From: Fidelibacterota bacterium
GTDB taxonomy: Bacteria > Fidelibacterota > UBA8477 > JABMPR01
Reading direction: 5' to 3'
Assembly: GCA_013202495.1 (NCBI GenBank)
Contig: JABMQQ010000067.1
Location: 7,143-71,142, forward strand
DNA: 64,000 nucleotides
Shown here: piece after piece, positions 5,102 to 43,179 of the stretch
Position numbering within the stretch: position 1 is the stretch's first letter
Layout of the letters: each line of letters opens with the position of its first letter
Notes under the pieces: model-generated
Told to the model about the DNA's origin: nothing
Database searches by the model: none
What the model saw: only the letters and a program-made list of their open reading frames with translations
Position numbers and translations under genes: made by a program

Positions 5102-5108
5102 TTGACAG

Positions 5109-5128
5109 GCGAGGATTCGAATCCTCGC
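5109..5128. repeat. 20-nt perfect palindrome GCGAGGATTCGAATCCTCGC, copy 1
   Basis: Read directly. It lies 21 nt upstream of the lpdA ATG. An identical copy is at 10115-10134. Confidence 0.9.
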
Positions 5129-5149
5129 GTTGATATAAGAGGATCAATT

Positions 5150-6538
5150 ATGAGTACAACACATTACGATATAGCAATCATCGGCGGCGGCCCCGGCGGA
5201 TATGTCGCCGCGATCCGTGCTGCCCAATTAGGTAAAAAAGCGGTGGTTATCGAACGCTCTGATCTCGGCGGGGTGTGTCTGAATTGGGGCTGTATTCCCA
5301 CCAAGGCGCTTTTGAAAAGTGCTGAAGTATTGCGATCCGCCCAGAAAGCCAAAAAATTTGGTGTGGTGGTGGGTGAGATTGACGTGGATTTTCCTTCAGT
5401 GATTCAGCGGTCTAGACAGGTCGCCGGTTCCCTTTCAAAAGGAGTGGATTTCCTCATGAAGAAAAATGAGGTGGATGTAATCAACGGGTTTGCAAAGCTG
5501 TTGGGTGGTAATCAGATTCGTATCAATAATGACCTGGAGATCAGTGCCGATCACATCATTGTGGCAACTGGTGCTCGTCCACGTCCCATGCCCGGTGCTG
5601 CCTATGATGGTGAAACCATTATCTCCTCCAAAGAAGCCATGAATCTGGAAACCATTCCGAAAAAGCTGGTAGTAGTTGGTGCTGGAGCCATCGGTGTTGA
5701 ATTTGCCGATTTCTATGCAGCCATGGGTAGCCAGGTTACCATCGTAGAAATGCTGCCACACCTGCTTCCCATTGAAGATGAAGAGGTTTCAGTCGAGCTG
5801 CAAAAAATGTTTAAGCGCAAGAAAATCAAAGCTCACACAGAATCCATGGTCGAAGCCATTTCTGTCTCAGAAGGACGCGCGCTTGTTAAAGTAAAAACAA
5901 AGACAGGTGAGGTTCTGGAGCTTGATGCAGATAAGGTCTTGATTGCCATTGGAGTTCAAGGCAATACAGAGGATTTAGGACTGGAAGAAGCTGGTGTCCA
6001 GCTTGAAAAGGGCTGGATAAAAACCAACGGATATATGCAAACCAGCACCGCTGGCATCTATGCCATTGGTGATGTGGCGGGTCCACCGTGGTTGGCCCAC
6101 GTCGCCTCTCATGAAGGTATCACGGCTGTAGAACATATAGCTGGATTGAATGTGAAGCCCATGCATTATGACAATGTACCGGGTTGTACTTACTGCACGC
6201 CCCAGGTCGCCTCTATCGGACTAACAGAAAAGGCTGCTCGAGAAGCAGGCTATGAAGTAAAGATTGGAAAATTCCCATATCGTGTATCTGGAAAGGCCAT
6301 GGCATCAGGAGAAACTGATGGATTTACCAAACTTATCTATGACGCCAAATATGGAGAACTTCTAGGTGCACATATCATAGGAGCTGAGGCAACCGAGCTT
6401 ATCGCTGAGATTGGAATGGCCCGATCTTTAGAAGCAACCCATGAAGCAGTACTTGAAACCATTCACGCTCACCCCACTTTATCAGAAATGATTATGGAAG
6501 CTTCCGGCCTGGCCCTGGATCGTGGTATCCACCTCTAA
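5150..6538 (+). CDS. lpdA: dihydrolipoyl dehydrogenase (E3)
   Basis: Motifs YDIAIIGGGPGGYVAAIRAAQLG, GGVCLNWGCIPTKALL redox disulfide, IYAIGDV and HAHPTLSE. Start set at ATG 5150, which follows a GAGGA RBS. Confidence 0.92.
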   Translation: MSTTHYDIAIIGGGPGGYVAAIRAAQLGKKAVVIERSDLGGVCLNWGCIPTKALLKSAEVLRSAQKAKKFGVVVGEIDVDFPSVIQRSRQVAGSLSKGVDFLMKKNEVDVINGFAKLLGGNQIRINNDLEISADHIIVATGARPRPMPGAAYDGETIISSKEAMNLETIPKKLVVVGAGAIGVEFADFYAAMGSQVTIVEMLPHLLPIEDEEVSVELQKMFKRKKIKAHTESMVEAISVSEGRALVKVKTKTGEVLELDADKVLIAIGVQGNTEDLGLEEAGVQLEKGWIKTNGYMQTSTAGIYAIGDVAGPPWLAHVASHEGITAVEHIAGLNVKPMHYDNVPGCTYCTPQVASIGLTEKAAREAGYEVKIGKFPYRVSGKAMASGETDGFTKLIYDAKYGELLGAHIIGAEATELIAEIGMARSLEATHEAVLETIHAHPTLSEMIMEASGLALDRGIHL

Positions 6539-6754
6539 AGGGTGATGGGGGCTATCCCATTAAAGTGGGATAACCACAAGATATTGATAAAAACCAACAA
6601 CTTTCCCTTATAGATGGTGCTTTGACCACTTCCCTAAAATTTGGGATATTTGATTTTGTAACACATGGTCTGTCAAGATTCAAAAGGGAAGCTCCTTGGT
6701 ATGAGACCTCAAATCGCTTAGAATGAGCGCTGAAAAAAGAGGATATTCAAGACT

Positions 6755-7216
6755 ATGCCATTTCCCCATATAAAACCACTACTCAACATTGTAGACACCA
6801 TCATCAGCGACCTGGATTCCAGGAATGAAATTCTGCAAAAGATATCAGAGCTCCTTTCAGAAAAAGTTGAGCACTATAATTGGGTCGGCTTTTATATCGT
6901 TGATGAATCAGATGCTAATCTCATTCTGGGTCCCTATGTCGGCGCAGCTACAGATCATGTTAAAATCGCTTTTGGGAAGGGGCTTTGTGGCCAGGTCGCA
7001 GTCTCTCAAATGAGTCGCATTATTCAGGATGTATCCCTTGAAGACAATTATCTGTCCTGTAGTTCAAATGTCCAGTCCGAGGTTGTTTTTCCGATTATGA
7101 AGGACGATAAATTTGTCGCAGAATTGGATATAGACTCCCACGTTATATCACCCTTTACGGAACTGGACACAGAACTGCTTGAGGCCATCTGTGAAAAATT
7201 AGCGGTGTTGTTTTGA
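6755..7216 (+). CDS. GAF-domain protein, free methionine-(R)-sulfoxide reductase-like (MsrC/YebR family)
   Basis: NWVGFYIVD...LILGPYVG...GKGLCGQVA...YLSCSS...VVFPI...ELDIDS matches the YebR/fRMsr pattern by eye. Confidence 0.7.
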   Translation: MPFPHIKPLLNIVDTIISDLDSRNEILQKISELLSEKVEHYNWVGFYIVDESDANLILGPYVGAATDHVKIAFGKGLCGQVAVSQMSRIIQDVSLEDNYLSCSSNVQSEVVFPIMKDDKFVAELDIDSHVISPFTELDTELLEAICEKLAVLF

Positions 7217-7236
7217 TTCAAAAAAGAATCAAATGT

Positions 7237-7285
7237 GGACGTCAAGACCTCTCAACTCCACTCGAGGAGACAGTCCCTTTTTTTT
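7237..7285 (+). terminator. candidate intrinsic terminator after the GAF gene
   Basis: Imperfect long hairpin (GGACGTC...GACAGTCC) followed by T8 at 7278-7285. Confidence 0.45.
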
Positions 7286-7416
7286 GCAGTATCACAAGAC
7301 ATTCTTCGAACTGGTATCGACCTATGTTCGTCATGCCGCCTGCCAAGTCGAAGCCAAGAGGCGTAGACTGGAGCGGTGTCGAGGTGCATAGAGTGAAGGG
7401 AAGCGTTTAACTTCAA

Positions 7417-8049
7417 ATGCACTCACTTCAAATTATAAAAAAAGGCCTGGTCCCCTATGAGGAAGCCTGGGAATACCAGCGTCAGACCCATGCCAGAAGA
7501 CTGGCCGGTGAGATACCTGACACCCTGATACTGTTGGAGCATCCTCCCGTCTACACTTTTGGTAAAAATTCTGATCAATCAAACCTCATTGATGCGCGTG
7601 ATGCTCAGGTCATCAGGAGTGACCGTGGAGGGGATATTACCTGGCATGGCCCAGGTCAACTGGTGGGATATCCCATTATCAATCTGGAAGATCACAACAA
7701 AAGCGTCAGCTGGTATATGCGGAATCTGGAAGAAGTGATTATTCAAACCCTCCAGCACTATGATATCAAGGGAGAACGCATCTCTGGAATGACAGGAGTA
7801 TGGGTGGGAAATCAGAAGGTTTGTGCCATGGGAGTAAGGCTTTCCCGCTGGGTAACCATGCATGGATTTGCCTTGAATGTGAGACCGGATATGTCATATT
7901 TCAACGGCATGATCCCCTGTGGTATCAAGGGCAAGGGGGTTGTGAGCATGCAGGATTTGCTTGGTGCTGAGATTACGATTGAAGAGGTTTCTCAGCCGCT
8001 GATTCAGGCTTTCCAGTCGGTATTTGATTTTGATAAAGTTTTAGATTAA
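7417..8049 (+). CDS. lipB: octanoyltransferase (lipoyl(octanoyl) transferase)
   Basis: Motifs LEHPPVYTFG, RGGDITWHGPGQLVGYPI and KVCAMGVR. Confidence 0.9.
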   Translation: MHSLQIIKKGLVPYEEAWEYQRQTHARRLAGEIPDTLILLEHPPVYTFGKNSDQSNLIDARDAQVIRSDRGGDITWHGPGQLVGYPIINLEDHNKSVSWYMRNLEEVIIQTLQHYDIKGERISGMTGVWVGNQKVCAMGVRLSRWVTMHGFALNVRPDMSYFNGMIPCGIKGKGVVSMQDLLGAEITIEEVSQPLIQAFQSVFDFDKVLD

Positions 8050-8064
8050 TAGTGGAGTCATTGC

Positions 8065-10080
8065 GTGTCAGCAAGTCTTAAAGGATTTCAAAAAGAAGAG
8101 TTACTCAGCATTTTCAAAACCATGGCGACTTCGCGTCGTACTGATGAAAAAATGCTCACGCTTCTGAGACAGGGGAAATCTTTCTTTCATATTGGTGCCG
8201 CTGGACACGAAGGCGCCCAACTGGCCTGCGCCATGCAGATGAACTCAGGGCAGGATTGGTCCTATCCCTACTATCGCGACCAAACCATGGTCATGGGTCT
8301 GGGGATGACCACCGAAGAGCTCTTTCTGGGCTTTTTAGCAAAAGCAGATGACCCCGGTTCAGGTGGTCGTCAACTTCCACAACATTATGGGCAAAAAGAT
8401 TTGAATATTGTTTCCCAGTCCAGCCCAACCGGTACTCAGTATCTCCAGGCTGTGGGAACCGCCATGGCCGCCCAGCAGACAGATAAGCATGCTCTCGTAT
8501 ACGTGTCTTCTGGAGAGGGAACCACCAGCCAGGGTGAATTTCATGAAGCCCTTAACTGGGCTGGCCGCGAGAAGTTGCCTGTTCTTTTTCATATTGAAGA
8601 CAATGGCTTTGCAATTTCGGTTCCCAAATCTTCACAAACTGCCGAAGGCTCTGTCTATGACATGGTCGGTGGCTACGGAAACCTGAACAGATTTGAAATA
8701 GACGGAACCGACTTCTTCGAGTCCTTCGCCACCTTCAAAGAAGCTATCTCAAGTATTCGGGCTGGAAAAGGTCCAGCCATTGTGGTTTCAAATGTAGTAC
8801 GTCTTTTGCCCCACTCCTCTTCTGATGATCATCGTAAATACAGAGATGCCGATGAACTCTCTGAAGAACAAAAACGTGACCCCATTGAAAAATTCAGGTC
8901 CCAGTGTGAGCAAGACGGCATTATCAGTTCAGATGAATTCCAACAAGTCTGGGATGAGGTGCTGCAAGAGGTCGATACAGCTGCCGAAAAAGCACTCTCG
9001 GCTCCCTTTCCAGATAAATCGGATGCAGATACCCATGTCGTCGATGAATCTGTCATGGCCATCCCTCATTCAAAGCCTGTCACAACTGGAGATGAAATCG
9101 TCATCGTCGATGCTGTCAATCATGCCCTCCATGAGGAAATGAGACGGAATGAACGAATGATCATTTACGGGCAGGATGTTGCGGATGGAAAAGGTGGTGT
9201 TTTTACTGCCACCAAGGGACTCTCCACAGAGTTTGGAGACAAACGAGTATTTAATTCCCCACTGGCCGAAGCATCCATTGTAGGAACTGCCGTTGGTGCC
9301 GCTGTTGCCGGTCTGAAGCCCGTCGTTGAAATACAATTTGGTGATTATATCTGGACAGCCATGATGCAGATCAGAAATGAAGTCGCCACCATCCGCTATC
9401 GCAGCAATAATTCCTATTCATGTCCCATTGTCATTCGAACCCCGGTTGGTGGATATATTCACGGGGGTTTGTGTCATAGTCAGAGTATCGAAGGCTTCTT
9501 CATGCATCTCCCCGGTATTCACATTGTTTATCCTTCTAATGCGGCGGATGCAAAAGGGTTGCTCAAGTATGCCTGTCGTATCGATGACCCCGTGCTTTTT
9601 CTTGAGCACAAGGGCATGTATCGTCAGGGATTCGCCAAGCGACCCGAACCAGATGAAGACTATCTCCTGCCCTTTGGTCAGGCTGCTGTGGTTCGTGATG
9701 GTCGAGACCTCACCATTGTCACCTATGGTTTGATGGTATATAAAGCCATAGAGGCTGCCAAATATCTGGAAAAAAGCACAGGCGCCTCTATCGAGGTAAT
9801 TGACCTGAGGACACTCAGTCCTCTTGATAAGGTCACTATTGGACAATCCCTGCAAAAGACCAGCAAAGCGTTGGTGGTCTATGAGGATACTTTGACGGCC
9901 GGTCCCGGTGCTGAAATAGCAGCCATTATAGCAGAGGAATTCTTTGAGTATCTGGATGGGCCGGTATTGCGTGTGGCCGCCAAAGATGCACCAGTCCCCT
10001 TTAACTGGGATTTGGAAGATGAAATATTACCCCAGACGGAAGATATCCGCCAGGCTGCAGAACGGCTTTTGGAGTATTAA
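8065..10080 (+). CDS. 2-oxoacid (branched-chain type) dehydrogenase E1 component, fused alpha-beta subunits
   Basis: 671 aa. The N-terminal half is a TPP-binding alpha region (YVSSGEGTTSQGEFHEALN). The C-terminal half is transketolase-like beta (IIYGQDVADGKGGVF, SPLAEASIVG). GTG start. Confidence 0.85.
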   Translation: MSASLKGFQKEELLSIFKTMATSRRTDEKMLTLLRQGKSFFHIGAAGHEGAQLACAMQMNSGQDWSYPYYRDQTMVMGLGMTTEELFLGFLAKADDPGSGGRQLPQHYGQKDLNIVSQSSPTGTQYLQAVGTAMAAQQTDKHALVYVSSGEGTTSQGEFHEALNWAGREKLPVLFHIEDNGFAISVPKSSQTAEGSVYDMVGGYGNLNRFEIDGTDFFESFATFKEAISSIRAGKGPAIVVSNVVRLLPHSSSDDHRKYRDADELSEEQKRDPIEKFRSQCEQDGIISSDEFQQVWDEVLQEVDTAAEKALSAPFPDKSDADTHVVDESVMAIPHSKPVTTGDEIVIVDAVNHALHEEMRRNERMIIYGQDVADGKGGVFTATKGLSTEFGDKRVFNSPLAEASIVGTAVGAAVAGLKPVVEIQFGDYIWTAMMQIRNEVATIRYRSNNSYSCPIVIRTPVGGYIHGGLCHSQSIEGFFMHLPGIHIVYPSNAADAKGLLKYACRIDDPVLFLEHKGMYRQGFAKRPEPDEDYLLPFGQAAVVRDGRDLTIVTYGLMVYKAIEAAKYLEKSTGASIEVIDLRTLSPLDKVTIGQSLQKTSKALVVYEDTLTAGPGAEIAAIIAEEFFEYLDGPVLRVAAKDAPVPFNWDLEDEILPQTEDIRQAAERLLEY

Positions 10081-10114
10081 ATGAGTTTGGGTACATTGAC
10101 ATGCTCTCTACCAA

Positions 10115-10134
10115 GCGAGGATTCGAATCCTCGC
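10115..10134. repeat. 20-nt perfect palindrome GCGAGGATTCGAATCCTCGC, copy 2
   Basis: Identical to 5109-5128. It lies 50 nt upstream of the E2 start. Confidence 0.9.
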
Positions 10135-10184
10135 GTAGAAAACCGGACAGCGCGGACTCCAGAAATGGAAAATAAGGTAATTTT

Positions 10185-11486
10185 ATGATATTCGATATCG
10201 TCATGCCAAAAATGGGCGAATCTTTAACCGAGGGAACCGTTCTTGAGTGGAAAAAGAAGGTCGGCGAAAGCATAGATAAAGATGAGACCCTTCTGGAAAT
10301 TGCCACAGACAAAGTTGATGCAGAAATTCCCAGTCCTGTCTCCGGGACGCTGGTTGAGATCATCGGTGAGGTCAATCAGACCTATGATATTGATACCGTC
10401 ATTGCCAGAGTAGAAACCTCAGATTCTGTTGAGATCCCTGCCAAAGTTGCGAGTGGTAGTCAATCGCCAGAAGGGACGTTGCATGCAACATCCCGACAAT
10501 CACCCCAAAGCGCACCCCAGCGCCCAGGTACTCAAGCGCCTGTGACCTTTGATGACAATCGCGTCTATTCTCCACTGGTGAGAAGTATTGCCGCTCAGGA
10601 AGGCATAACTCCAGCTGAGTTGCAACAGATTCCAGGTAGTGGGTTTCGTGGTCGGGTATCAAAAAAAGATGTACTTTTCTATCTTGAAACTCGCGGCTCC
10701 GGTGGTAAAAAGCCAAGCCCAATAAGTGGACTGGAAGAAACGGGTCTGGCCGATAGAGTATCTCCTGAGGATGTTGAAATCATCGATATGGACAGCATGC
10801 GTAAAAGCATTGCCAAGCATATGCGCAAGAGTGTGGACACCTCAGCCCATGTTTACTCTGTCAGTGAAGCTGACATGACGAAAATCATGACCTTCATATC
10901 AGAGAACAATGAGCAGTTCAAGACCAAGCATGGCCACTCCCTCACGGTAACCCACTTTATCACCAAAGCAGTGCGAGATGCGCTGTTAAACTTTCCCATG
11001 ATCAATGCTTCCCTGGACGGAACCAGGATCATTCGACACAAACACCTGAATATTGGTATTGCAGTTGCAGTGGGGGATGGATTGGTTGTTCCCCCTGTTA
11101 GAAATGCTGAAAAGAAATCACTCAAAGAAATTTCCGATGATATTTCCAATATCGTTAGCAAGGCGCGAGTCAAGAAGCTGACCCTGGATGATCTTGAGGG
11201 AGCCACTTTCGCCATTACCAATTTTGGTGTTTTTGGCAATCTGGCAGGTTACCCCATTATCAATCAACCCAATGTGGCTATTCTGGGTGTGGGGGTCATC
11301 AAGAAAAGACCTGTTGTTGTTGAAACTAAAGCTGGCGATGAAATAGTTATTCGTCAGATGTGTGTCTTTACCCTGGGCTTTGATCATCGTCTGGTTGATG
11401 GTGCCATGGGTGGACAGTTTATTGAAGAAATTATGAAGAACCTTGAAAGCGTTGATCCTCAGAAGGAACTCGCTGGAGCACTATGA
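10185..11486 (+). CDS. dihydrolipoamide acyltransferase (E2)
   Basis: Lipoyl domain (MPKMGESLTEGTVLEWKK...EIATDKVDAEIPS), E3-binding domain (SPLVRSIAAQEGI) and catalytic DHRLVDG motif. Confidence 0.92.
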   Translation: MIFDIVMPKMGESLTEGTVLEWKKKVGESIDKDETLLEIATDKVDAEIPSPVSGTLVEIIGEVNQTYDIDTVIARVETSDSVEIPAKVASGSQSPEGTLHATSRQSPQSAPQRPGTQAPVTFDDNRVYSPLVRSIAAQEGITPAELQQIPGSGFRGRVSKKDVLFYLETRGSGGKKPSPISGLEETGLADRVSPEDVEIIDMDSMRKSIAKHMRKSVDTSAHVYSVSEADMTKIMTFISENNEQFKTKHGHSLTVTHFITKAVRDALLNFPMINASLDGTRIIRHKHLNIGIAVAVGDGLVVPPVRNAEKKSLKEISDDISNIVSKARVKKLTLDDLEGATFAITNFGVFGNLAGYPIINQPNVAILGVGVIKKRPVVVETKAGDEIVIRQMCVFTLGFDHRLVDGAMGGQFIEEIMKNLESVDPQKELAGAL

Positions 11487-11524
11487 TAAATGAATTGAAA
11501 AGAATCCTGATTACACAACGTGGG

Positions 11525-11575
11525 CTCTACTTCCCCTCAACAAGCTCGGGACAGGCTAGGCTCAGCAAGACGCAC
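11525..11575. repeat. ~47-nt interspersed repeat, copy B
   Basis: ctctacttcccctcaacaagctcgggacaggctaggctcagcaagacgcac; see 4287-4335. Confidence 0.8.
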
Positions 11576-11589
11576 ACGTTGATTTGTCT

Positions 11590-11608
11590 CCCTGAGGCTC
11601 TCGAAGGG
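11590..11608. repeat. hairpin of the stem-TCGAnnnnGCTC-stem family (inverted)
   Basis: CCCT gaggctctcga AGGG. Confidence 0.55.
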
Positions 11609-11662
11609 TGGAGAAAAAGTGATTTTGTTAATGCAAACAAGAGATTCGCTGGAGCCATTTAG

Positions 11663-12556
11663 ATGTCAAAACCTTCCAAACCAGCCTGGCTTAAAACAAA
11701 GTTACGCAGTGGACCAAACTTTCAGGACCTGAAAAACATTGTCTCAAGCCATCAGGTGCATACGGTATGTCAGGAAGCCATGTGCCCCAATATCAGCGAA
11801 TGCTGGGAGCGTCGTGCTGCCACCATCATGATTTTGGGTGACACCTGTACGCGCTCCTGTGCCTTTTGTGCTGTAAAAACGGGTCGACCATCAGCTGTTG
11901 ACCTGGATGAGCCTAGAAGGACTGCTGAGGCTGTTAAAAAGATGGGTCTGCACCATTGTGTCATTACCTCGGTTGATCGAGATGAGCTGGACGATGGCGG
12001 TGCTGGGATCTGGGCTGAAACCATCCGTCAGATTCATGCGGAAGTGCCGGGTTGTTCCATTGAAGTGCTGACACCAGATTTTCAGGGCAATCCTGAAAGC
12101 ATTAAAACGGTTCTGGATGCTAAACCTGAGATTATGAGCCACAATATGGAAACCGTGGAACGACTCCATCGTAGAATTCGCCCTCAAGCTCAGTATCAAA
12201 GATCTCTGGATGTACTGAGACAGTCCGTATCTGAAGGCTTGCAGACCAAGACTTCAATTATGGTGGGAATCGGTGAAGAGAAAGAGGAGGTCTTTGCTCT
12301 CATGGATGACGTGCGAGCCACCGGTTGTCAAATCTTTTCCCTCGGGCAATATTTACAGCCCACCAAAGACCACGAACCAGTCCATCGATATGTCCATCCC
12401 GATGAATTTGCTGAGTATAAAGAATATGGGATGAATATTGGGTTTAGCTATGTAGAGTCGGGACCGCTGGTGCGCTCCTCCTATCATGCTGATGAGCAAG
12501 CTTTGCATAACCAGATTTTAAATCCTCCTGGAAAACGAGAACTTATCCCGGGATAG
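11663..12556 (+). CDS. lipA: lipoyl synthase
   Basis: CPNISECW and CTRSCAFCAV radical-SAM cysteine clusters, plus SSYHAD near the C-terminus. Confidence 0.95.
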   Translation: MSKPSKPAWLKTKLRSGPNFQDLKNIVSSHQVHTVCQEAMCPNISECWERRAATIMILGDTCTRSCAFCAVKTGRPSAVDLDEPRRTAEAVKKMGLHHCVITSVDRDELDDGGAGIWAETIRQIHAEVPGCSIEVLTPDFQGNPESIKTVLDAKPEIMSHNMETVERLHRRIRPQAQYQRSLDVLRQSVSEGLQTKTSIMVGIGEEKEEVFALMDDVRATGCQIFSLGQYLQPTKDHEPVHRYVHPDEFAEYKEYGMNIGFSYVESGPLVRSSYHADEQALHNQILNPPGKRELIPG

Positions 12557-20463: not shown

Positions 20464-20874
20464 CTATTCATCATCTGGTTTGACACGTGTACGAAGTTGC
20501 TTTACACGACTGCGTTTGGTTTTGGTTTCTAATCGTTTGTTCACGGATGCCCGTGTTGGCCGAGTGGCCTTGCGTTTCTTGGGCTCTATTTCAGCTTTCT
20601 CAATAATTTTTTCAAGTCTATCCAGGGCAGCCAGACGATTGGCTTCCTGATTGCGGAATTGCCTGGCAGTAATTATGATAACACCCTCTGCATTGATGCG
20701 CTGGTCACGCAATTTTAAGAGGCGCTCCTTGATATGATCAGGGAGGCTGGAATTCTGACTATCAAAACGGAGTTGAATGGCTGTGGCCACTTTATTGACG
20801 TTTTGCCCACCAGGTCCACCTGAGCGGATGGCTTTGAGCTCAAGCTCGCTTTCTGGAATTCTCAGGGGTGACAA
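20464..20874 (-). CDS. arfB: alternative ribosome-rescue factor ArfB (peptidyl-tRNA hydrolase)
   Basis: GGQ motif (SGGPGGQNVNKVATAIQLRF) plus a basic C-terminal tail; 136 aa. Confidence 0.9.
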   Translation of the reverse strand: MSPLRIPESELELKAIRSGGPGGQNVNKVATAIQLRFDSQNSSLPDHIKERLLKLRDQRINAEGVIIITARQFRNQEANRLAALDRLEKIIEKAEIEPKKRKATRPTRASVNKRLETKTKRSRVKQLRTRVKPDDE

Positions 20875-21738: not shown

Positions 21739-22036
21739 AAAAACATCCTGTATTATCCGCCTTCGCGTAGTACCATGGGTTCATCCATGGATAAATACAT
21801 TGAACCAGCTACGGTGCGAATTCGGGTAATGGTTTATACTCGAGTTTACCTGTGAGGCTCCAATAATCGTAAAAGATGCACCACAGGGCAGGTGGCTGAA
21901 AGAATTTTTAACAGAATTATTTGTCTCAAGTCACCCTAAAAGGCATGTTAATCTGAAGTTGCTAAAAGTATCTTTTTCGACTATTGGCCAGACGAATTAA
22001 TTAAGAGAAATTCAACCATTCCTATGATGAGGAAGC

Positions 22037-22588
22037 ATGCTTAAATCAGCCCTACTACTTATAGATGTACAAAAAGGTTTTGACAGCCCGCTGTGGGGAC
22101 AGCGGAACAATCCTGAGGCCGAATCAAATATCACAGCCCTGCTGGCTGAATGGCGTAAACATGGCGCGCCCATCATCCATGTGAAGCATTGTTCAGTTTC
22201 TTCGCAATTACCCCTCCACCCTGATCAACCGGGGAACGCCTTCAAGGATGAAGCAGCACCCATATCAGGAGAGCCAGAATTCACCAAATCAGTGAACAGC
22301 GCCTTTATCGGAACCGGTCTTGAGGATTATTTACACGAAAATGATCTGGGTTCTCTTGTCATTGTTGGTCTTACCACAGATCATTGTGTGTCCACATCAA
22401 CCCGCATGGCTGGAAATCTGGGTTTTGATGTGACCCTGGTTTCAGATGCCACAGCTACCTTTGATCGAAAAGACGCTGGGGGTGAACACATTAGCGCAGA
22501 AGATATGCATCGTGTGAATCTGGCCAGCTTAAATGGTGAGTTTTGCGTCGTGAAAACAACAAATGAAATCCTAAAGGCAATAAATTAA
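22037..22588 (+). CDS. cysteine hydrolase / isochorismatase family protein
   Basis: ALLLIDVQKGF and VIVGLTTDHCVSTS (catalytic Cys). Confidence 0.85.
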   Translation: MLKSALLLIDVQKGFDSPLWGQRNNPEAESNITALLAEWRKHGAPIIHVKHCSVSSQLPLHPDQPGNAFKDEAAPISGEPEFTKSVNSAFIGTGLEDYLHENDLGSLVIVGLTTDHCVSTSTRMAGNLGFDVTLVSDATATFDRKDAGGEHISAEDMHRVNLASLNGEFCVVKTTNEILKAIN

Positions 22589-22608
22589 AGACCAGGGGGC
22601 TCTCCATA

Positions 22609-23391
22609 GTGAGCAAGCTAACAAGCGATAATTTAGAAAGCTGGACCGAGCATTTTCAAAAGGGCTGGCTGAAAAACTTTGTTGACACCAAGAGCATTGA
22701 CTGGAAGCTCTATAAATATGTAAGGAATGAGCAGACTGTGGCGGGGAAAGGGCTTGATTTGTCTAAAGCCCGTCTCCTGCTTGTCTCCTCTTCAGGTGCC
22801 TACTTGCCCTCTAAGGATAAGCCCTTCCATGCTGCTAACCTTTTGGGTGATTACACCATTCGCACCTTTCCTGCCTCTACGCCTTTTTCAGAGCTTGAAT
22901 ACGCCCATGATCATTATGATCAAACCGCGGTGAGAAAGGATGCTCAGGTACTGCTTCCACTGAATCATCTGCGAGACCTGGTGGATAAAAAAGTTATTGG
23001 CAGTCTGAGTGAGACGGTGGTCAGTTTTATGGGCTATCAACCCTGGGTGGGTCGAGTGATCAAAAAAACCCTGCCTGCTATCCACAAGATTGTACAAGAA
23101 GAAGCCATAGATGCTGTTTTGCTGGTACCCTCCTGACCTCTGTGTTCTCAATCCGTGGGATTGATCGCCAGAGCATTGGAAGAAGCCGGAATAAGGACAA
23201 CGTTGACCAGTTGGAATGCTGGGATTATCCGTGGGATCAAACCGCCTCGTGCCACCATAACTGCATTACAGCGAGGCATGACCCTTGGGCATCCCCATGA
23301 TGAAGCCCAACAAAAGCGGGTTCTTATGGAAACACTTAAATTACTTGAACTGGATGCACCAGTGGATCTTGTGCGTCTCAATGAGAAGTAA
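22609..23391 (+). CDS. GrdB/PrdB-family selenoprotein B-like protein, candidate selenocysteine at TGA 23134-23136
   Basis: Two ORFs (22609-23136 and 23155-23391) are in the same frame, separated only by TGA. Read-through gives ...AIDAVLLVPS-U-PLCSQSVGLIARALEEAGIRTT..., a UxxC motif in a family-like context. There is a hairpin 12 nt downstream. Confidence 0.6.
23148..23164 (+). promoter_or_regulatory. candidate bacterial SECIS hairpin
   Basis: TCAATCC GUG GGATTGA: a 7-bp stem with a G-starting apical loop. The loop lies 21 nt from the U of UGA. Confidence 0.4.
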
Positions 23392-23400
23392 AATCAGCTC

Positions 23401-23889
23401 GTGAAGATCCGAACTGCTAAGAAACAAGATTTAATCCAGCTCGTTGAGATATACAATCAAGCTATAAAGGCACAAAGCACTGCCACTCTGGAGCCGGTTA
23501 CATTCAAGGATAGAAAGTCCTGGTTTGAGGATCATGGGCAGGATAAACATCCAATCCTCGTGGCTGAGTCCGAGAACCTCATTTTGGGATATCTATATCT
23601 AAGCCCCTATCGTCCCGGTCGCTCAGCTCTGAGGCAAACAGTCGAAGTAAGTTATTTTGTGGATTTTGACCATCACCACAAGGGAGTTGGTTCACTCCTT
23701 CTGAAAGCATGTCTGGAGAAATGCCCTGGTCTGGGTATAAAATCTCTTTTCGCGATCCTCCTGGAAACCAACGAAGCAAGTATCAACTTACTGAAAAAAC
23801 ATGGATTCGAGCAATGGGCACTTCTCCCTGATGTGGCGGAGATTGATGGTATAGAAGTGGGTCAGGTTTATTTTGGTCGAAAAGTTTAA
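23401..23889 (+). CDS. GNAT N-acetyltransferase, phosphinothricin/methionine-sulfoximine acetyltransferase-like
   Basis: IRTAKKQDLIQLVEIYNQAI...ATLEPVTFKDRKSWF N-terminus and HHHKGVGSLLL motif. Confidence 0.75.
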   Translation: MKIRTAKKQDLIQLVEIYNQAIKAQSTATLEPVTFKDRKSWFEDHGQDKHPILVAESENLILGYLYLSPYRPGRSALRQTVEVSYFVDFDHHHKGVGSLLLKACLEKCPGLGIKSLFAILLETNEASINLLKKHGFEQWALLPDVAEIDGIEVGQVYFGRKV

Positions 23890-23890
23890 C

Positions 23891-23940
23891 CAGAGAAAAA
23901 GCGAAGAAAAGCTGAGAAAAACTGAGAAAAACTGAGAAGG
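23891..23940. repeat. five imperfect 10-bp tandem repeats (nCTGAGAAAA)
   Basis: cagagaaaaa gcgaagaaaa gctgagaaaa actgagaaaa actgagaagg. The last unit supplies the AAGGAG RBS of blc. Confidence 0.8.
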
Positions 23941-23949
23941 AGTCATTCC

Positions 23950-24465
23950 ATGAGAAGAATTCTTGCGTTGACAATCCTAACATTTATTGTGATTGGTTGT
24001 GTAGAGGTTCCAGAAGGGATCACCCCTGTTAAAAATTTTAAGGTGAAGCGGTTTATGGGGACGTGGTATGAGATTGCCCGACTGGATCACCCTTTTGAGC
24101 TGGGCATGAATAGCGTCACCGCTAACTACTCCCTTGACTCAGATGGTGGAATCACGATTCAAAACAGTGGATACATGGTTAAGTGGGAAGAATGGAGATA
24201 TGCTGAAGCCAAAGCATCTTTTGTGGATGATAAAAAAACAGGATTTCTTAAGGTTTCCTACATATGGCCATTCTATGATCCCTATGTCATTTTCAAGCTG
24301 GAGCAGGACTATGATTATGCCTTTGTGTGTGGCAGGGACAGATCCTTCCTCTGGCTGCTATCCAGAACAGAATATGTGGATAGGGATGTCATCGATGAGT
24401 TTGAGGAAGAAGCTAAAAAGCTCGGGTTTGATACATCAGCGTTAATCTATGTTAATCACTTTTGA
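23950..24465 (+). CDS. blc: bacterial lipocalin (outer-membrane lipoprotein Blc)
   Basis: Lipobox VIGC, FMGTWYEIARLDHPFE and the YDYAFVCGRDRSFLWLLSR motif. Confidence 0.9.
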   Translation: MRRILALTILTFIVIGCVEVPEGITPVKNFKVKRFMGTWYEIARLDHPFELGMNSVTANYSLDSDGGITIQNSGYMVKWEEWRYAEAKASFVDDKKTGFLKVSYIWPFYDPYVIFKLEQDYDYAFVCGRDRSFLWLLSRTEYVDRDVIDEFEEEAKKLGFDTSALIYVNHF

Positions 24466-24621
24466 AATTCTTTTCGAGAACGAGATTAGAACATACCCGT
24501 GAGACCCTCCTAAACCTAGAAGGCGGAACTAAACACCTAGCAAGTTATATATGATGTAACAAAGCATGTGATATGAACACTAAGATATATAACATGACCG
24601 ATATTTAAGGATTATAAAATA

Positions 24622-25137
24622 ATGAAAGTTTTAATAATGATAGGTTTAACACTTTTTGGAATGGCATCAGGAGCAGATAATAAACTGACAGAGGGCAGCC
24701 CTGCTCCCGATTTTACCATGCAGGATCAGAATGGGAAATCCCACACACTCTCTGAGTATCAGGGTCAGCAGGTTGTGGTGTATTTTTACCCCAAGGACGA
24801 TACTCCAGGATGTACCAAAGAGGCCTGTTCAATTCGGGATGATTACACCCTGTTTGAAAAGAATGGCATCAAGGTCTTTGGTGTGAGTTATGATGATATG
24901 AAGAGCCACAAAAAATTTGCTGAGAAATATGATCTGCCTTTTACTCTACTGAGTGATTTGGATAAATCTGTGGCTGCAGCCTATGGTACCAAAGGGATTT
25001 TTGTCCCTTCAAGAAAGACATTCCTGATTGATGAGGCTGGCATGGTTCGCAAGATCTATGAGAATGTTACGGTTTCTGGACATGGAGCAGAGATTCTGGC
25101 AGACTTCGCAGCCATGGCTGCACCTGCCAAGGACTAA
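24622..25137 (+). CDS. bcp: peroxiredoxin (Bcp type) with N-terminal signal peptide
   Basis: APDFTMQDQNGK...VVVYFYPKDDTPGCTKEAC. The N-terminal MKVLIMIGLTLFGMASGA looks like a signal peptide. Confidence 0.88.
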   Translation: MKVLIMIGLTLFGMASGADNKLTEGSPAPDFTMQDQNGKSHTLSEYQGQQVVVYFYPKDDTPGCTKEACSIRDDYTLFEKNGIKVFGVSYDDMKSHKKFAEKYDLPFTLLSDLDKSVAAAYGTKGIFVPSRKTFLIDEAGMVRKIYENVTVSGHGAEILADFAAMAAPAKD

Positions 25138-25146
25138 TGCCCTATC

Positions 25147-25178
25147 ATCAAACACCCGACTTAAGTCGGGTGTTTGAT
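25147..25178 (+). terminator. hairpin after bcp
   Basis: 14-bp perfect stem ATCAAACACCCGAC ttaa GTCGGGTGTTTGAT. The U-tract is only weak. Confidence 0.5.
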
Positions 25179-25211
25179 ATAATCCCAAAACATCAAAAGC
25201 ATGGAAAAACA

Positions 25212-25811
25212 ATGAACAAATCCAGACATAATATATCGATAGGCATTATAACCTGCTTCTTGTCCCTATCAGTGTTCGCCGGTACACCCATTGACGTAAA
25301 GAAAAGTACTGTGGAATGGGTGGGTAACAAGGTCACAGGTTCGCACAATGGCAGTCTTGAAATACAAAAAGGCGAGGTGACCATTGAAAAAGGTGTGATC
25401 AGGAGTGGTCGCTTTATACTCGATATGACCAGCATCAAAGTCCTGGACATCAAGGATAAAAAAAAGAACAGAAGCCTGGAAAAGCACCTTAAGCATGATG
25501 ATTTCTTTGGTGTGAATAATTATCCCAAAGCCGTATTTGAGTTTGCAGTGGCATCGCCCATAAAAGGTGCTAAAGATGATGAACCGAATTATCATTTTAA
25601 GGGAGATTTAACTCTCAAAGGCATTACCCACGCATTGGACTTTGATGCCCGTGTGGACATGAAAAAAAAGAGCGCCTCTGCCTCGGGACAAATCATTGTG
25701 GATAGAACCAAATACAATATCCGCTATAAATCGAACAAATTTTTCGATGGCCTGGGCGATCGAGCAATCTATGATGAATTCAGCATCACCTTTAACGTTT
25801 TGACCAAATAA
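25212..25811 (+). CDS. YceI-like periplasmic polyisoprenoid-binding protein
   Basis: VEWVGNKVTGSHNGSL...DMTSI...HLKHDDFFGVNNYPKAVF...GDLTLKGITH. Start set at ATG 25212 because the longer ORF runs through the bcp terminator hairpin. Confidence 0.85.
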   Translation: MNKSRHNISIGIITCFLSLSVFAGTPIDVKKSTVEWVGNKVTGSHNGSLEIQKGEVTIEKGVIRSGRFILDMTSIKVLDIKDKKKNRSLEKHLKHDDFFGVNNYPKAVFEFAVASPIKGAKDDEPNYHFKGDLTLKGITHALDFDARVDMKKKSASASGQIIVDRTKYNIRYKSNKFFDGLGDRAIYDEFSITFNVLTK

Positions 25812-25817
25812 TGTTCT

Positions 25818-25842
25818 GGGGGGGGCAATCCCCCCTTTTTTT
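25818..25842 (+). terminator. intrinsic terminator after the yceI-like gene
   Basis: GGGGGGGG caat CCCCCC followed by T7. Confidence 0.8.
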
Positions 25843-37574: not shown

Positions 37575-39035
37575 CTATTGTATTTGTAATATTTTCGCAG
37601 TGCGGATGAAGCCGTTCTGCTCTACGCGAATTATGGAAATACCGCTAGTGCTATTGGGGCTGTGCTCAACGCGTATTCTGTTTAAACCGACTGATGTCAT
37701 TGATCTCACGTATGTTGAACGTCTACCCAGCACATCGTAAACAGAGATTGTACACATTGACGCAAATGGCGTGGTCAAGTCAATAGTTAGTGCGCCATTT
37801 GTAGGATTAGGGTATGTAGAAATCTTGAAATCAGATGGAAGCAGGTAACTAAAACCAGCGGTCGATACCGTCGTATGATTTGCTCTCGCCGCCAGCACCT
37901 GTATTTCGGCTGTTGTCATCCGTTTCTTTGACTTGCCAGCCAGGAGGATATCGTATTCACCAAGAATTATGAAAGATCTGGCATGCTCCCAGTTGGAAGA
38001 TGGATGGACATAAGTCCATACTTCATTGCCCTCCGAATCAGTCATAAATGCCCAGAGATTATTTATATTAGGACTACCGAAGGATTGAGTGCTCCCAACA
38101 ACGACAAGATTGTCATTCTGGTCAGACTGAATGGCGGTCGGATTCTCAGAGTCCTCACCACCATAGGTCCTGACCCATTCTTCTTCACCATCTGGATTTA
38201 GACAGGTAAGGAATGCATCCTCATAATGAAAATCCAAAGCATGGAGTGTTTGTCCCAGGAGGATTATTTTGTCTGAAGCTGTGACCGTCAAATCCATAAG
38301 TGGATCTCTGCCCCAGGCACCTTCTGCGTTACAATGAACACGAGAAAAGGAAATCTGTTCACCTTGTGAATCCAAGATGAGCAGTCCAGCCGCCCAGTAA
38401 TGATAATCACCGCCACCTTCATATACATTAATACCGACTACAATTCGACCATCCATCAATGTATCTATGGCTATTCCCTTCGCCGCTGGATAGATCCCGG
38501 TTTCATACACTTTTGACCATACCTCCTGTCCATGAGGCTCTATCAGGGACACGAAGGCGCTGTCATTCCTCGAGCCAGTAATTAAGTAACCGCCATCCCC
38601 CAGTTGCAGAATGTCTGCAACAGAGTTAAGGATGTAAGCATTGAAAAAGGTACTGGACCAAATAATGTCTCCTGCAGTGTTCACATTTGCCAACCAGGCA
38701 TAACGGTCTGCCCCGAGAGATTCCTCTATGTAGCCCCCTATGATAAACGATCCGCCATCGATCAACTGGCTACAGAGCACACCTTCATTTCCACCGAGAT
38801 CAAATTGATTCGTTGCCAGAGCAAGCCCATTGGAATCGATCTCAGCCAGCCAAACATCACGGTTCGATAGCTCGCGAAACTGTCCAAGAATAATAAAGTG
38901 GTTCTCATCTACGCGGTGTATATCGACCGCCTCCTCCCAGGCCGGGCTACCATATTCAGCAATCCAGCGGGTTTGGAGGGAATCCTGTCCAAGGGAAATG
39001 GTAGCCAGGAATGCAATGAGTAGGATAAATTTCAT
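37575..39035 (-). CDS. secreted protein with T9SS-type C-terminal sorting domain
   Basis: Signal peptide from MKFILLIAFL (ATG 39035). The C-terminus is YPNPTNGALTIDL...ISVYDVLGR...IRTAKILQIQ. Confidence 0.65.
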   Translation of the reverse strand: MKFILLIAFLATISLGQDSLQTRWIAEYGSPAWEEAVDIHRVDENHFIILGQFRELSNRDVWLAEIDSNGLALATNQFDLGGNEGVLCSQLIDGGSFIIGGYIEESLGADRYAWLANVNTAGDIIWSSTFFNAYILNSVADILQLGDGGYLITGSRNDSAFVSLIEPHGQEVWSKVYETGIYPAAKGIAIDTLMDGRIVVGINVYEGGGDYHYWAAGLLILDSQGEQISFSRVHCNAEGAWGRDPLMDLTVTASDKIILLGQTLHALDFHYEDAFLTCLNPDGEEEWVRTYGGEDSENPTAIQSDQNDNLVVVGSTQSFGSPNINNLWAFMTDSEGNEVWTYVHPSSNWEHARSFIILGEYDILLAGKSKKRMTTAEIQVLAARANHTTVSTAGFSYLLPSDFKISTYPNPTNGALTIDLTTPFASMCTISVYDVLGRRSTYVRSMTSVGLNRIRVEHSPNSTSGISIIRVEQNGFIRTAKILQIQ

Positions 39036-39069
39036 GTTTTTGATGTTTAGCGCCATCGGCTTTTGAAAA

Positions 39070-39654
39070 TCAGAGCTTAAATCCAAGATTGAAAGTAAAG
39101 TGTACACTCAATGGTGGCAGTTCCCAATCAAATTGTTCACCATTCTTTGCTTTGAAGACGATGGGTCCACCACCCAGTGCTAACAAGAGAACAAAGCGCT
39201 CATTTATCGTCCATTTTCTACCAACTTCTGGTTCCAATGTAATAAAAGTCCACGCTGATTTTTCAATATCCAAGAATCTCATAAAGCCGCCTAATTCAGT
39301 AATCTCTGGATCTACTTCAGCATAATAAAGGCGTAATCCCAGACCATAGAACCGCTTGCAGTTTTTTGGTTGATAATAAAATGGCCACCTCTTGTTAATC
39401 CCGACAGAAAGAAATTTTTGCACGCCGAATTTTCTCGTTGGTGCATAGAAAGGGATGATATTCGCAAGGGTAATCAAATAATCGGTTTCCTTTAGCGTGA
39501 TCGAGTCTGAATAGGATAATTCCATTTTCACTATCCCAGACATGAGATCGTTGAATCCGATAGAAACATCTGTTGGTTGATTGATTGGTACAGCCCATGC
39601 GAAACTTACAACAACTGATATTATATAAAGATGTTTCATCTGATTTACCCCCAT
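39070..39654 (-). CDS. hypothetical outer-membrane beta-barrel-like protein
   Basis: Signal peptide, alternating beta pattern and a C-terminal ...FNLGFKL. The start may be the internal MKHLY. Confidence 0.5.
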   Translation of the reverse strand: MGVNQMKHLYIISVVVSFAWAVPINQPTDVSIGFNDLMSGIVKMELSYSDSITLKETDYLITLANIIPFYAPTRKFGVQKFLSVGINKRWPFYYQPKNCKRFYGLGLRLYYAEVDPEITELGGFMRFLDIEKSAWTFITLEPEVGRKWTINERFVLLLALGGGPIVFKAKNGEQFDWELPPLSVHFTFNLGFKL

Positions 39655-39757
39655 TTATTCAATATACCTAATGCGCTAGACCCATCTGCGTCCCCGGGGA
39701 CTATTGTGGGAGCCCTTGAATATTCTTCTGTGTATTACTCAATTGACCAGAACCCAT

Positions 39758-40810
39758 TTACAATTCATCTGGAGGAGGGGTCATGGATCTGAATGTCAGT
39801 TGTCTCTCTGTCCCGGTGAGTCGATTCATTACCCAGAGATGTCCGTTGGTGGTATCAAATACGGAGTAATCATGTTTTGAATACACAATTGACAACCCAT
39901 CAGGTGACCAGCTTGGCTCCAGGCCGCCATCTGATGTTAGTATCATAACATCTGTTGTGATGGTATCCTGTATGGCAATTTGAAAGCGCGTCTCATCAAT
40001 TACCCACGATTCAAATGCCACAAATTCTCCATCAGATGAAAAGGTTGGGTTCCGCGCTTCTGTCTCTGTAAAACTAAAGCGTTTCTGGTTCCGACCATTG
40101 GCATCCATCAAATACAATTGGGTATGTAAAGGGTCATCACCCCGGAGATTCTTGTGTGATATGATTCTTGATTTGGTAGGGTGCCAGGAAGGTCCCCGCC
40201 ATGCTCCATCATAAGATCGTGGAATACGAACTTGTTTGATATTCCCTCCCAGGGTATCCATGGTCCAAATGCTAAAGATGGACGACGTGCCCGATGATGC
40301 ATAAACAATCATGTTCTCAGTGGGATGTTGATGTGGTGACCAAATGCTGTGTCCTTCAGTTATGTGCTGCAGCTCGCCTGTATTGAGATTGTACTTGTTC
40401 AGCTTGCCTTCATGTACAAAGAGCAGGCTCCTGCCATCTGGGGTCCAGGAGGGGTCATGAGCCCAACCCGTTGCAATCATTTTACGTTGCCCACCCGCTG
40501 AAGGGATGATGTATATCCCCATTGAATCAACATCGGGATAACAGCCCCCATGTTCAGCAACTATTGACCCTCCATTATGATAGTAGGCTATCCAGGTTCC
40601 ATCAGGAGACCATGAGGGAGAATAGTCAATCTGCGGATAGGCTGGACTTTCTATGCCGGCATACCATTCTGATTTCTGGTCAAGATCAGGTGGTTCAACA
40701 AGATGAGAACAACCACTTGATATCAATATTGCGAATAACAAAACTAGCGCTGGGCCAATTGTCTTCCTGGCGGATCCAGCTTTAGACCGTTTGTTGAGTA
40801 CCACCATCAT
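39758..40810 (-). CDS. TolB-like PD40 beta-propeller lipoprotein
   Basis: Lipobox SSGC. Repeated SPSWSPDG / DPSWTPDG / GPSWHP / NPTFSSDG / EPSWSPDG motifs. Confidence 0.75.
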   Translation of the reverse strand: MMVVLNKRSKAGSARKTIGPALVLLFAILISSGCSHLVEPPDLDQKSEWYAGIESPAYPQIDYSPSWSPDGTWIAYYHNGGSIVAEHGGCYPDVDSMGIYIIPSAGGQRKMIATGWAHDPSWTPDGRSLLFVHEGKLNKYNLNTGELQHITEGHSIWSPHQHPTENMIVYASSGTSSIFSIWTMDTLGGNIKQVRIPRSYDGAWRGPSWHPTKSRIISHKNLRGDDPLHTQLYLMDANGRNQKRFSFTETEARNPTFSSDGEFVAFESWVIDETRFQIAIQDTITTDVMILTSDGGLEPSWSPDGLSIVYSKHDYSVFDTTNGHLWVMNRLTGTERQLTFRSMTPPPDEL

Positions 40811-42645
40811 TTTAAATATAAGACCTTCACAAACTGCGAATGGTTTTCAGTTTGAAGTTGAATAAGGTACATACCCGTACTGACATTTTTGCCTGAATGG
40901 TTCAACCCGTTCCAGTGAACTTGATATGCTCCAGCAGCTTGATTTGAGTCAACCATTTCTAGTACGGTTTGACCTGAAACATTGAAAACCGTCAGTTTTA
41001 TGTTTGAGGCATGGGGTAGGGTATAGGAAATGGTGGCAGTGGGATTGAATGGATTCGGATAGGCATGTAGACTGAAGCTTGAAGGTAAAACGGGGTGTTC
41101 ATTTATTGAAACTTGAATTGGACTGAGATCGCCCCAGGACGCCCCATTAATTTGGTAACCAATAAGGCTTTTAACTGCACCTGGATCCATAAACTGTGAT
41201 GAAAGACCAACACCATATCTCCAGGTAGAGCTACCGAATTCATCACCCTCTCTTAATAAGAGTGCAGGACTATCATCGATTAATTGATAAAGAAACTCTA
41301 TTTCCTGCTCTGGATTCGAATCTGAAAAAGAGACAGAAATAGCTTCTGAAGATGGAGCTGAATAGATGTTGGCACGATCAAGGACATGAGTGTACTTAGA
41401 AATTGTATCTACGGTTGCCAATCCACCATAAAGCTGGTAATCATGTCCCCGACGTTCGATGACATATTCCGTAAAATCTGCTAATTCGCTCACGGCAATC
41501 ACCTCTTCAGTGCTAACAGAATCGATATGGTGATATGTCTGAGCCCATTTCCATTTATTACCCAAAGCCAGAGGATAGAACTGCCTCAGATCAGATCGTG
41601 CATATCCGTTAATGGCAAAAGATAGAGTGTCTTCACTACTCAGCTGTTGTGGTGAATTATTGGTACGAATAATAAACCCAGAAGGATTGCCCGTATTCGC
41701 ATCAGAAAATGTTGGAGGAGAATAACCACCAGGGTACATAAATGTTTGCCACATGTGATCCGAAGGGTCCATGCTTTCCATATCATGGGAGGTCGTATCG
41801 CTCCAATTAATTGTATCCCCGGGCCCGAAGACAAACTTATCAAAATAAAAGGACAATTGATTTTCAGATTGATGAATAGAGGTGAAGGTCCATTCTGTGG
41901 GTGCATTTTCACCAACGAGACCCAAAACTTCAGCATCTATACGATAGGTTCGGGGCCAGACGTCTACAACAACTGGAAATTCATACTCCGAATTGTTGAA
42001 GCTCAAAGAAAAGGCAGGACCAGGATAGGTGATAATTGGAGAGGTCGGATTGCGATACAAAAACACAATCCATTTCGCCACACTGGGATCAAGCGCTCCC
42101 AGGCTAGGGGGATAGCGATAGATGACAACCTGGTATGGGTAGTTGGCAAACTGACGAACCACATTGAGGTTTTTGATGGCATTCCAGGCTGAATCAGCTG
42201 CCAGAATCTCAACAGTATCTACAAGTGAAATTCCAGTTTCCCGCCAATACTGAATAGATTGGGGTTCTCGGATGGAATCTTCTTGTACATAAAAAGAATC
42301 TGCAGGTATAAAGCTATCTGGTTTATAAAGCTCACCTTGTCCCATCCACACATAGGTACCATGAAAAACTGTATCTCCAGTACATGGATAGGTCATAATG
42401 GTATACCCAAAATCTGCCGCGGGCTGAACTTCAAGTTCGAGTGGGAACAGAACGGTGTCCACTTCCAGACAGGTTGGATAGTTGAGAATCGTCCCCTGCT
42501 CAAATTCCTTTGATTGATAATTAACAACAAAAAGACCAAATGAAACCGAGTCTTCGGGGAGAGTAATATACGATTGTGCTGATAGACTTAACGCCATGAG
42601 CAGCGTGGCTATTATTTTATTCATCATGTGGTGTCCAATAATCAT
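40807..42645 (-). CDS. secreted protein with T9SS-type C-terminal sorting domain
   Basis: The C-terminus is YPNPFNPTATISYTLP...KLTVFNVSGQ...GMYLIQLQ...VKVLYLK. The stop overlaps the next start (ATGA). Confidence 0.7.
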   Translation of the reverse strand: MIIGHHMMNKIIATLLMALSLSAQSYITLPEDSVSFGLFVVNYQSKEFEQGTILNYPTCLEVDTVLFPLELEVQPAADFGYTIMTYPCTGDTVFHGTYVWMGQGELYKPDSFIPADSFYVQEDSIREPQSIQYWRETGISLVDTVEILAADSAWNAIKNLNVVRQFANYPYQVVIYRYPPSLGALDPSVAKWIVFLYRNPTSPIITYPGPAFSLSFNNSEYEFPVVVDVWPRTYRIDAEVLGLVGENAPTEWTFTSIHQSENQLSFYFDKFVFGPGDTINWSDTTSHDMESMDPSDHMWQTFMYPGGYSPPTFSDANTGNPSGFIIRTNNSPQQLSSEDTLSFAINGYARSDLRQFYPLALGNKWKWAQTYHHIDSVSTEEVIAVSELADFTEYVIERRGHDYQLYGGLATVDTISKYTHVLDRANIYSAPSSEAISVSFSDSNPEQEIEFLYQLIDDSPALLLREGDEFGSSTWRYGVGLSSQFMDPGAVKSLIGYQINGASWGDLSPIQVSINEHPVLPSSFSLHAYPNPFNPTATISYTLPHASNIKLTVFNVSGQTVLEMVDSNQAAGAYQVHWNGLNHSGKNVSTGMYLIQLQTENHSQFVKVLYLK

Positions 42646-43131: not shown

Positions 43132-43179
43132 CTGTTCTCTCCTTGATACACATAACGCACGAGGGGTTCTAAGCGCTCG

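Follow-up and report, generated by a model that had tools for sequence, protein, structure and literature searches.

The described proteins closest to the gene considered here are PrdB (TIGR04483), known from Clostridium sticklandii and Clostridioides difficile, and the GrdB, GrdF and GrdH proteins (TIGR01917, TIGR01918, PF07355), of which GrdB is described as having a UxxCxxC motif (PMC13188914). A further group comes from the sea. Selenoproteins named 'Proline reductase PrdB', which combine a UxxC motif with a pfam07355 domain, were reported in 2005 from 42 genes of the Sargasso Sea (PMC1088965), and 235 selenocysteine (Sec) forms and 110 Cys forms are on record from GOS (PMC2398784). Homologs of this kind are among the most abundant marine selenoprotein families (PMC1088965, PMC2398784), and 'Proline reductase' selenoproteins have also been listed in Anaeromyxobacter and Geobacter (PMC1794560). 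We describe here a related gene in a stretch of 64,000 nucleotides (the window), and discuss how it compares with these systems. Positions 22609–23391 very probably form a single Sec-recoded gene, whose 260-residue selenoprotein product belongs to the GrdB/PrdB superfamily (PF07355).

The first-pass annotation of the window had noticed two ORFs in the same frame, separated only by a TGA, and had expected a read-through product of ~260 residues. The first ORF (22609–23136) starts with GTG and has 175 codons before the TGA at 23134–23136; past this codon, the only separator of the two ORFs, the frame stays open until the TAA at 23389–23391. Read-through gives exactly 260 residues, with the sequence ...EAIDAVLLVPS-U-PLCSQSVGLIARALEEAGIRTTL... 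around the recoded position. The N-terminus, of the form MSK..(D/N)..W, is common to the window protein and its close homologs (P0003 and L003–L005). The features of the gene are as follows.

22609–23391, + strand: complete recoded coding sequence, 260 codons (GTG start, predicted Sec at codon 176) plus TAA
22594–22599, + strand: Shine-Dalgarno-like AGGGGG, 9 nt 5' of the GTG start, found by sequence inspection
23134–23136, + strand: in-frame UGA, predicted to be read as selenocysteine, residue 176; TGA in 81/81 aligned loci
23143–23145, + strand: TGT codon of Cys179, second residue of the U-P-L-C redox motif; Cys in 81/81
23137–23388, + strand: C-terminal 84 residues, made only with UGA recoding; protein-level conservation

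A relationship to GrdB and PrdB, and a UxxC motif, had been proposed for this gene from its sequence. Profile searches with the fused protein, in which Cys was placed at the UGA, bear this out, and gave the following matches.

Pfam GRDB (PF07355): 34.3 bits (cut-off 22), residues 50–173, profile positions 222–345 of 347
NCBIfam PrdB (TIGR04483): 112.7 bits (cut-off 300), residues 50–247, profile positions 26–219 of 238
GrdB (TIGR01917): 40.2 bits (cut-off 602.2), residues 49–211, profile positions 219–381 of 431
Selenoprotein B subfamily (TIGR01918): 38.5 bits (cut-off 65.45), residues 49–199, profile positions 219–369 of 431

The Pfam match stops two residues short of the UGA; the match to the PrdB model spans it. 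These scores place the window protein in the GrdB/PrdB superfamily, and by the curated thresholds it is neither PrdB nor GrdB. With PrdB it shares homology over residues 50–247, a UxxC motif with the predicted Sec at the equivalent place, and a similar size (about 26–28 kDa). Unlike PrdB, it scores well below the family cut-off (112.7 vs 300 bits), carries an additional helix of ~50 residues at its N-terminus, and has neither prdA (for the pyruvoyl proprotein) nor prdC in the window; neither gene is conserved beside any of 80 homologs, whose hosts are not Stickland-fermenting Firmicutes. With GrdB, GrdF and GrdH the shared part is the C-terminal half of GrdB (profile positions 219–381). GrdB is ~430 residues long, whereas the window protein is without the N-terminal 220 or so residues, stays below all NCBIfam cut-offs and has no grdA or grdE neighbor that we could find. 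Its motif is UPLCSQS, that is UxxC, which is not UxxCxxC since a third Cys is absent.

The resemblance is closest to the marine proteins. In the accessible part of the marine catalog, sequences have the same Sec context, for example LIPVUPVCHQSVGLIARALEAEGIAT, and there the Sargasso/GOS family shares with the window protein an origin in marine bacteria, the pfam07355 domain, the UxxC motif and the pattern LLVP.U-P.C-.QSVGLIARALE..GI.T...PPRA. In a BLASTP comparison with the GOS read JCVI_READ_1942117, 37% of 227 residues are identical (E 4e-38), and the Sec columns are aligned. Unlike the Sargasso/GOS family members, the window protein is of a shorter subfamily of 260 residues, with a Trp-rich N-terminal helix and no C-terminal extension, which is found mainly in Neomarinimicrobiota and Chloroflexota; no exact match to this subfamily was found among Sargasso/GOS sequences in the accessible portion of the published supplement. 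By sequence the gene is thus best classed as a predicted stand-alone 'marine PrdB-like' UxxC selenoprotein, another member of the marine selenoprotein family already cataloged.

If the TGA were a genuine stop, the product would have 175 residues, and the downstream frame would either stay untranslated or be a small gene of its own that begins at GTG 23155. Public annotation agrees with this: a word-indexed protein search returned 306 homologs of the window protein, and among the best 120 more than 100 are annotated as ending at ~173 residues, exactly at the UGA codon. The GTG at 23155 opens an ORF of 78 codons and is the sole candidate for an internal start. The comparison of loci speaks against a stop. 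A scan of one genome per species gave 80 related loci, with tblastn matches spanning query residues about 7–260, which together with the window make a set of 81. Most are from Chloroflexota (Chloroflexia, Anaerolineae and Caldilineae), and the others from Candidatus Neomarinimicrobiota, SAR324, Calditrichia, Gemmatimonadota and Lentisphaeria, at least six phyla in total; the closest (JADHVL010000022.1, Candidatus Neomarinimicrobiota BS150m-G71) is 95% identical. The aligned codon is TGA throughout, and in 79 of the 80 related loci the frame continues after it for ~85 residues with conserved sequence, the consensus being P[LI]CxQSVGLxARALE..GI.T.LTSW...PPRAT.T.L.RG.TLG.P.D.QQ.R.L..TL.LL..AP. 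What follows the TGA corresponds to the C-terminal part both of the PrdB model and of full-length homologs.

The downstream sequence also varies as translated sequence does. Outside the hairpin described below, the three codon positions have, in order, mean entropies of 0.75, 0.50 and 1.57 bits, and the Arg at position +12 from the UGA is retained in 80 of 81 sequences by means of all six Arg codons; Cys179 is encoded by TGC in 42 loci and by TGT in 39. Of the 81 sequences, 23 have GTT, GTC or GGT in place of the candidate start at 23155, which is located within the loop of the hairpin and lacks a ribosome-binding site. A genuine stop is therefore extremely unlikely, and the proposal that the two ORFs are one recoded gene, and not two, is upheld by the comparison. 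It follows that the window gene and over 100 clusters of homologs are truncated at ~173–175 residues in public annotation, the Sec codon having been taken for a stop; the true product has 260.

The same conservation bears on the idea that the TGA arose by nonsense mutation in a pseudogene, or is a sequencing error. Two related loci of Chloroflexota, L075 (5001–5778) and L080 (5001–5781), are frameshifted, the former 5' of the TGA and the latter ~50 codons 3' of it, which could be taken as a sign of decay; in both the TGA and the hairpin are still present, and these two loci are either pseudogenes or assembly errors. For the window gene, decay or error has a negligible probability, being refuted by the presence of TGA at the same codon in 81 independent assemblies, with purifying selection on both halves of the gene.

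[quoted passage not shown] The window gene shares both features. A 7-bp hairpin with a G-initiated loop had been pointed out at 23148–23164 (UCAAUCC-GUG-GGAUUGA), and it is indeed present: its stem begins after a spacing of 11 nt from the UGA, and the U of the UGA and the first G of the loop are 21 nt apart. Its parts are listed here.

23144–23168, + strand: conserved SECIS-like hairpin (RNAalifold consensus of 81 sequences and pair counts)
23148–23154 with 23158–23164, + strand: upper stem, 7 bp (RNAalifold, pair counts)
23155–23157, + strand: GUG apical loop (RNAalifold)
23144–23145 with 23167–23168, + strand: two lower pairs, beyond a 2x2 internal loop (RNAalifold)
23138–23173, + strand: clade-specific extension, CUCUG 23138–23142 with CAGAG 23169–23173 (minimum-energy fold of the window sequence)

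As a single sequence, the hairpin folds modestly better than chance. The 42 nt at 23134–23175 fold with -15.6 kcal/mol (z = -2.61), a value equalled by 2 of 200 shuffles, and in a context of 76 nt z is -0.73. Significance comes from the comparative data, an alignment of 81 sequences over 81 nt that is free of gaps. Three pairs are invariant, and three show compensatory changes. The pair 23151/23161 is G-C in 63 sequences, A-U in 17 and G-U in one, and is never mismatched. The third base of a Gln codon is here paired with the first base of a Leu codon, so that both changes are synonymous, and covariation between the two sites is strong (counts 17, 0, 1 and 63; Fisher p 1.4e-16). The A-U form, CAA with TTG, is found in Marinimicrobia of low GC and in several Chloroflexota of 50–58% GC. 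The pair 23148/23164 is U-A in 43 sequences, C-G in 18 and G-C in 6. In L045 a double change from U-A to A-U turns Ser into Thr and GGA into GGU. For the structure of 14 pairs, 81.4% of cells are paired vs 29–37% when the partners are slid by 1–3 columns, and its covariation score was reached by none of 500 shuffles. The loop has the form GUN, with G as its first base in all 81 sequences.

Codon usage within the gene provides an internal control. The Ser at +6 is TCC in 79 of 81 sequences, and the Ser at -1 uses six codons; likewise, the Gly at +8 is GGA in 72 of 81, and the Gly at +18 is spread over four codons. The long lower stem (23138–23142 with 23169–23173) was rejected as a conserved part of the element: it is kept only in the closest relatives, and its pairs (alignment columns 15–18 with 45–48) are broken in 31–58 of 81 sequences. 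Rfam gave no match at gathering thresholds across the window, and nothing relevant in permissive mode over 23050–23300. The hairpin thus differs from other bacterial SECIS elements in its three-base GUN loop, its family-specific sequence and its lack of an Rfam model match. The pair counts and the consensus fold, with their compensatory changes, suggest that it matches the described features of bacterial SECIS elements, as had been supposed.

Relatives without the TGA provide an external control. The DNA of five was used.

Non-Sec homologs: L001 (4998–5804), L002 (1678–2520), L085 (292–1164), L086 (501–1337), L087 (326–1144)

The peptide QSVGL is encoded by four of the five, and the fifth, L001, has QSVSL, where Ser (AGC) replaces the Gly. 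Otherwise the Gly is encoded by GGG or GGC, and the Ser of the peptide by TCT, TCA or TCG; in L086 the equivalent of the hairpin has an A.C mismatch. The hairpin is lost in four of the five, three of which still encode QSVGL. The same peptide can therefore be made without the hairpin, which is not a by-product of the peptide sequence. The remaining relative, L002, has TGG (Trp) at the Sec codon and retains six of the seven hairpin pairs; it would look like the outcome of a very recent change from TGA to TGG, or of a read error.

More distant relatives were collected by an exhaustive profile search of 1.84 billion representatives, which gave 1385 relatives with E <= 0.001, of which 542 have E <= 1e-10. 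Many of them stop at profile position 188–189, just before the Sec column. Alignment with Cys-containing homologs had been suggested as a check, and among 75 full-length representatives the residue in the Sec column is Cys in 43, Ser in 12, Gly in 10, Trp in 3 and another residue in 7. The Cys forms read CPxC, mostly CPxC-HQ, and this is the classic pairing of Sec with Cys. The nearest full-length clade is ~45–50% identical to the window protein and has the same Trp-rich N-terminal helix, with Gly, Ser, Asn or Trp in the Sec column; sometimes the second Cys is absent too. The closest full-length relatives thus do without Cys at this column, which implies that part of the family works without a redox residue there. 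An alternative genetic code as the origin of the full-length homologs was rejected, since P0018 has a real GGG and P0022 a real TGG.

The non-Sec relatives are also pertinent to whether the UGA might be read through without selenocysteine, either by a near-cognate tRNA for Trp or Cys or in a reassigned code. The Trp form that still has the hairpin would fit such a reading, as would the fact that Sec machinery was not seen in the window (see below). TGA, however, terminates 20 of the 54 long ORFs in the window, so the standard code applies there and the codon is not reassigned, and the phyla concerned use the standard code. Simple read-through would also leave unexplained why a covarying hairpin with a G-first loop lies at SECIS distance, and it is opposed by the frequency of Cys in the Sec column of the 75 relatives. 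We regard it as very unlikely, and return to the Sec-recoded gene.

AlphaFold2 predicts the recoded protein with high confidence (pLDDT 91.6, pTM 0.91) as one alpha/beta domain with an N-terminal helix (residues 9–27). The C-terminal part is folded together with the rest as one protein, which is a further argument against a genuine stop at the TGA. In the model, residues 174–177 (P-S-U-P) join the strand 169–173 to the helix 178–192, which would put Sec176 and Cys179 of the U-P-L-C motif in a strand-helix loop, at the N-terminus of the helix. Such a loop is the usual place of a redox-active UxxC or CxxC pair. A search of the PDB gave no significant match by sequence, and by fold the best E was 0.024 with TM below 0.4, leaving no related structure on which a mechanism could be based.

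Following the mechanism established for bacteria, the hairpin 11 nt 3' of the UGA would recruit SelB-GTP-Sec-tRNA(Sec) as the ribosome reaches the UGA, and the codon at 23134–23136 would be decoded as selenocysteine by SelB-dependent insertion. By analogy with PrdB and GrdB, the selenolate may then attack the substrate, Cys179 may resolve the adduct with formation of a selenide-sulfide bond, and a cellular dithiol system would re-reduce that bond. The protein is probably not a D-proline or glycine reductase, because the gene stands without a pyruvoyl partner of the PrdA type and without Grd components. The absence of grd and prd partners nearby, already remarked on in the first-pass annotation, is confirmed by Pfam searches of 53 of the 56 window ORFs of at least 150 residues, which found no PrdA/GrdE-type, GrdA or PrdC family.

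The two neighbors had been identified from sequence as an isochorismatase-family hydrolase and an acetyltransferase, and Pfam agrees on both.

22037–22588, + strand: isochorismatase-family gene, upstream neighbor, 20-nt gap (PF00857, E 2.5e-31)
23401–23889, + strand: GNAT acetyltransferase, downstream neighbor, 9 nt after the stop (PF00583, PF13420)
22001–22028: promoter-like site
25818–25836: strong terminator-like hairpin

These two genes are context and not part of the recoding. The GNAT gene is followed by genes for a Blc-type lipocalin, an AhpC/TSA peroxiredoxin (Cys form) and a YceI protein. From 22001 to 25836 the window thus has six + strand genes with short gaps, between the promoter-like site and the terminator-like hairpin, and these genes may form a unit related to stress. 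Synteny does not extend beyond the Marinimicrobia clade, where the isochorismatase gene is found in 8 loci and the GNAT gene in 7. Clustering of 888 ORFs from the 81 loci revealed no partner gene common across phyla; the two largest 'neighbor' clusters consist of ORFs from high-GC genomes that lie antisense within the PrdB-like gene. In 22–23 high-GC loci of Chloroflexota (among L012–L082) the PrdB-like gene is overlapped by long antisense ORFs, of up to 514 codons, which cluster together; they are by-products of a conserved GC-rich coding sequence, and not genes. A review (PMC9312934) cites a predicted link between isochorismatase-like proteins and an orphan SelD-based selenium trait. The position of the isochorismatase-family gene beside the selenoprotein gene may be a coincidence.

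Components of the Sec machinery were sought in the same material. No SelA, SelB or SelD family was found by Pfam in the 53 ORFs searched, nor any tRNA, and hence no tRNA-Sec, in the 64-kb window, and the window and every fetched locus lack motifs of SelD or SelB; the remaining doubt about Sec recoding stems from this. Two scans of the window for TGA-split frames with redox motifs returned the PrdB-like gene only, with no second selenoprotein, and a search of the literature on Marinimicrobia and selenocysteine found nothing useful. The gene itself marks its Marinimicrobia-type organism as a likely user of Sec.

The 260-residue subfamily always has Sec in Neomarinimicrobiota and Chloroflexota, and is never beside prdA or grd genes. 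It is possible, but on balance doubtful, that the subfamily is a self-contained selenoenzyme with a substrate unrelated to proline or glycine, which might act with its neighbors in Marinimicrobia, and whose fold also serves without selenium. In the Marinimicrobia clade the selenoprotein may act with the operon-like set of isochorismatase-type hydrolase, GNAT, lipocalin, peroxiredoxin and YceI proteins, which hints at stress or detoxification chemistry. If the sister clade replaced Sec by non-redox residues, the fold would also have a selenium-independent function. Selenoproteins of this kind have been known since 2005; what is added here is comparative proof for the shorter subfamily, namely a SECIS alignment of 81 sequences with covariation at synonymous sites and a control of codon usage, together with corrected lengths for proteins annotated as truncated.

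Some other genes of the window deserve mention. The - strand at 20464–20874 encodes a protein of 136 residues whose RF-1 domain and GGQ motif suggest a ribosome-rescue peptidyl-tRNA hydrolase of the ArfB type; in seven loci this gene shows synteny with that of the selenoprotein. A lipoate/2-oxoacid dehydrogenase cluster at 5102–12556 (+ strand) encodes dihydrolipoamide dehydrogenase, a GAF-domain protein, lipoyl (octanoyl) transferase, a fused E1 alpha/beta, E2 and lipoyl synthase. At 37575–48320 (- strand) are genes for several large proteins with Por_Secre_tail (type IX secretion sorting) and FlgD_ig domains, adjoined by a secretin gene, as would be expected in a relative of the FCB group, for instance Marinimicrobia.
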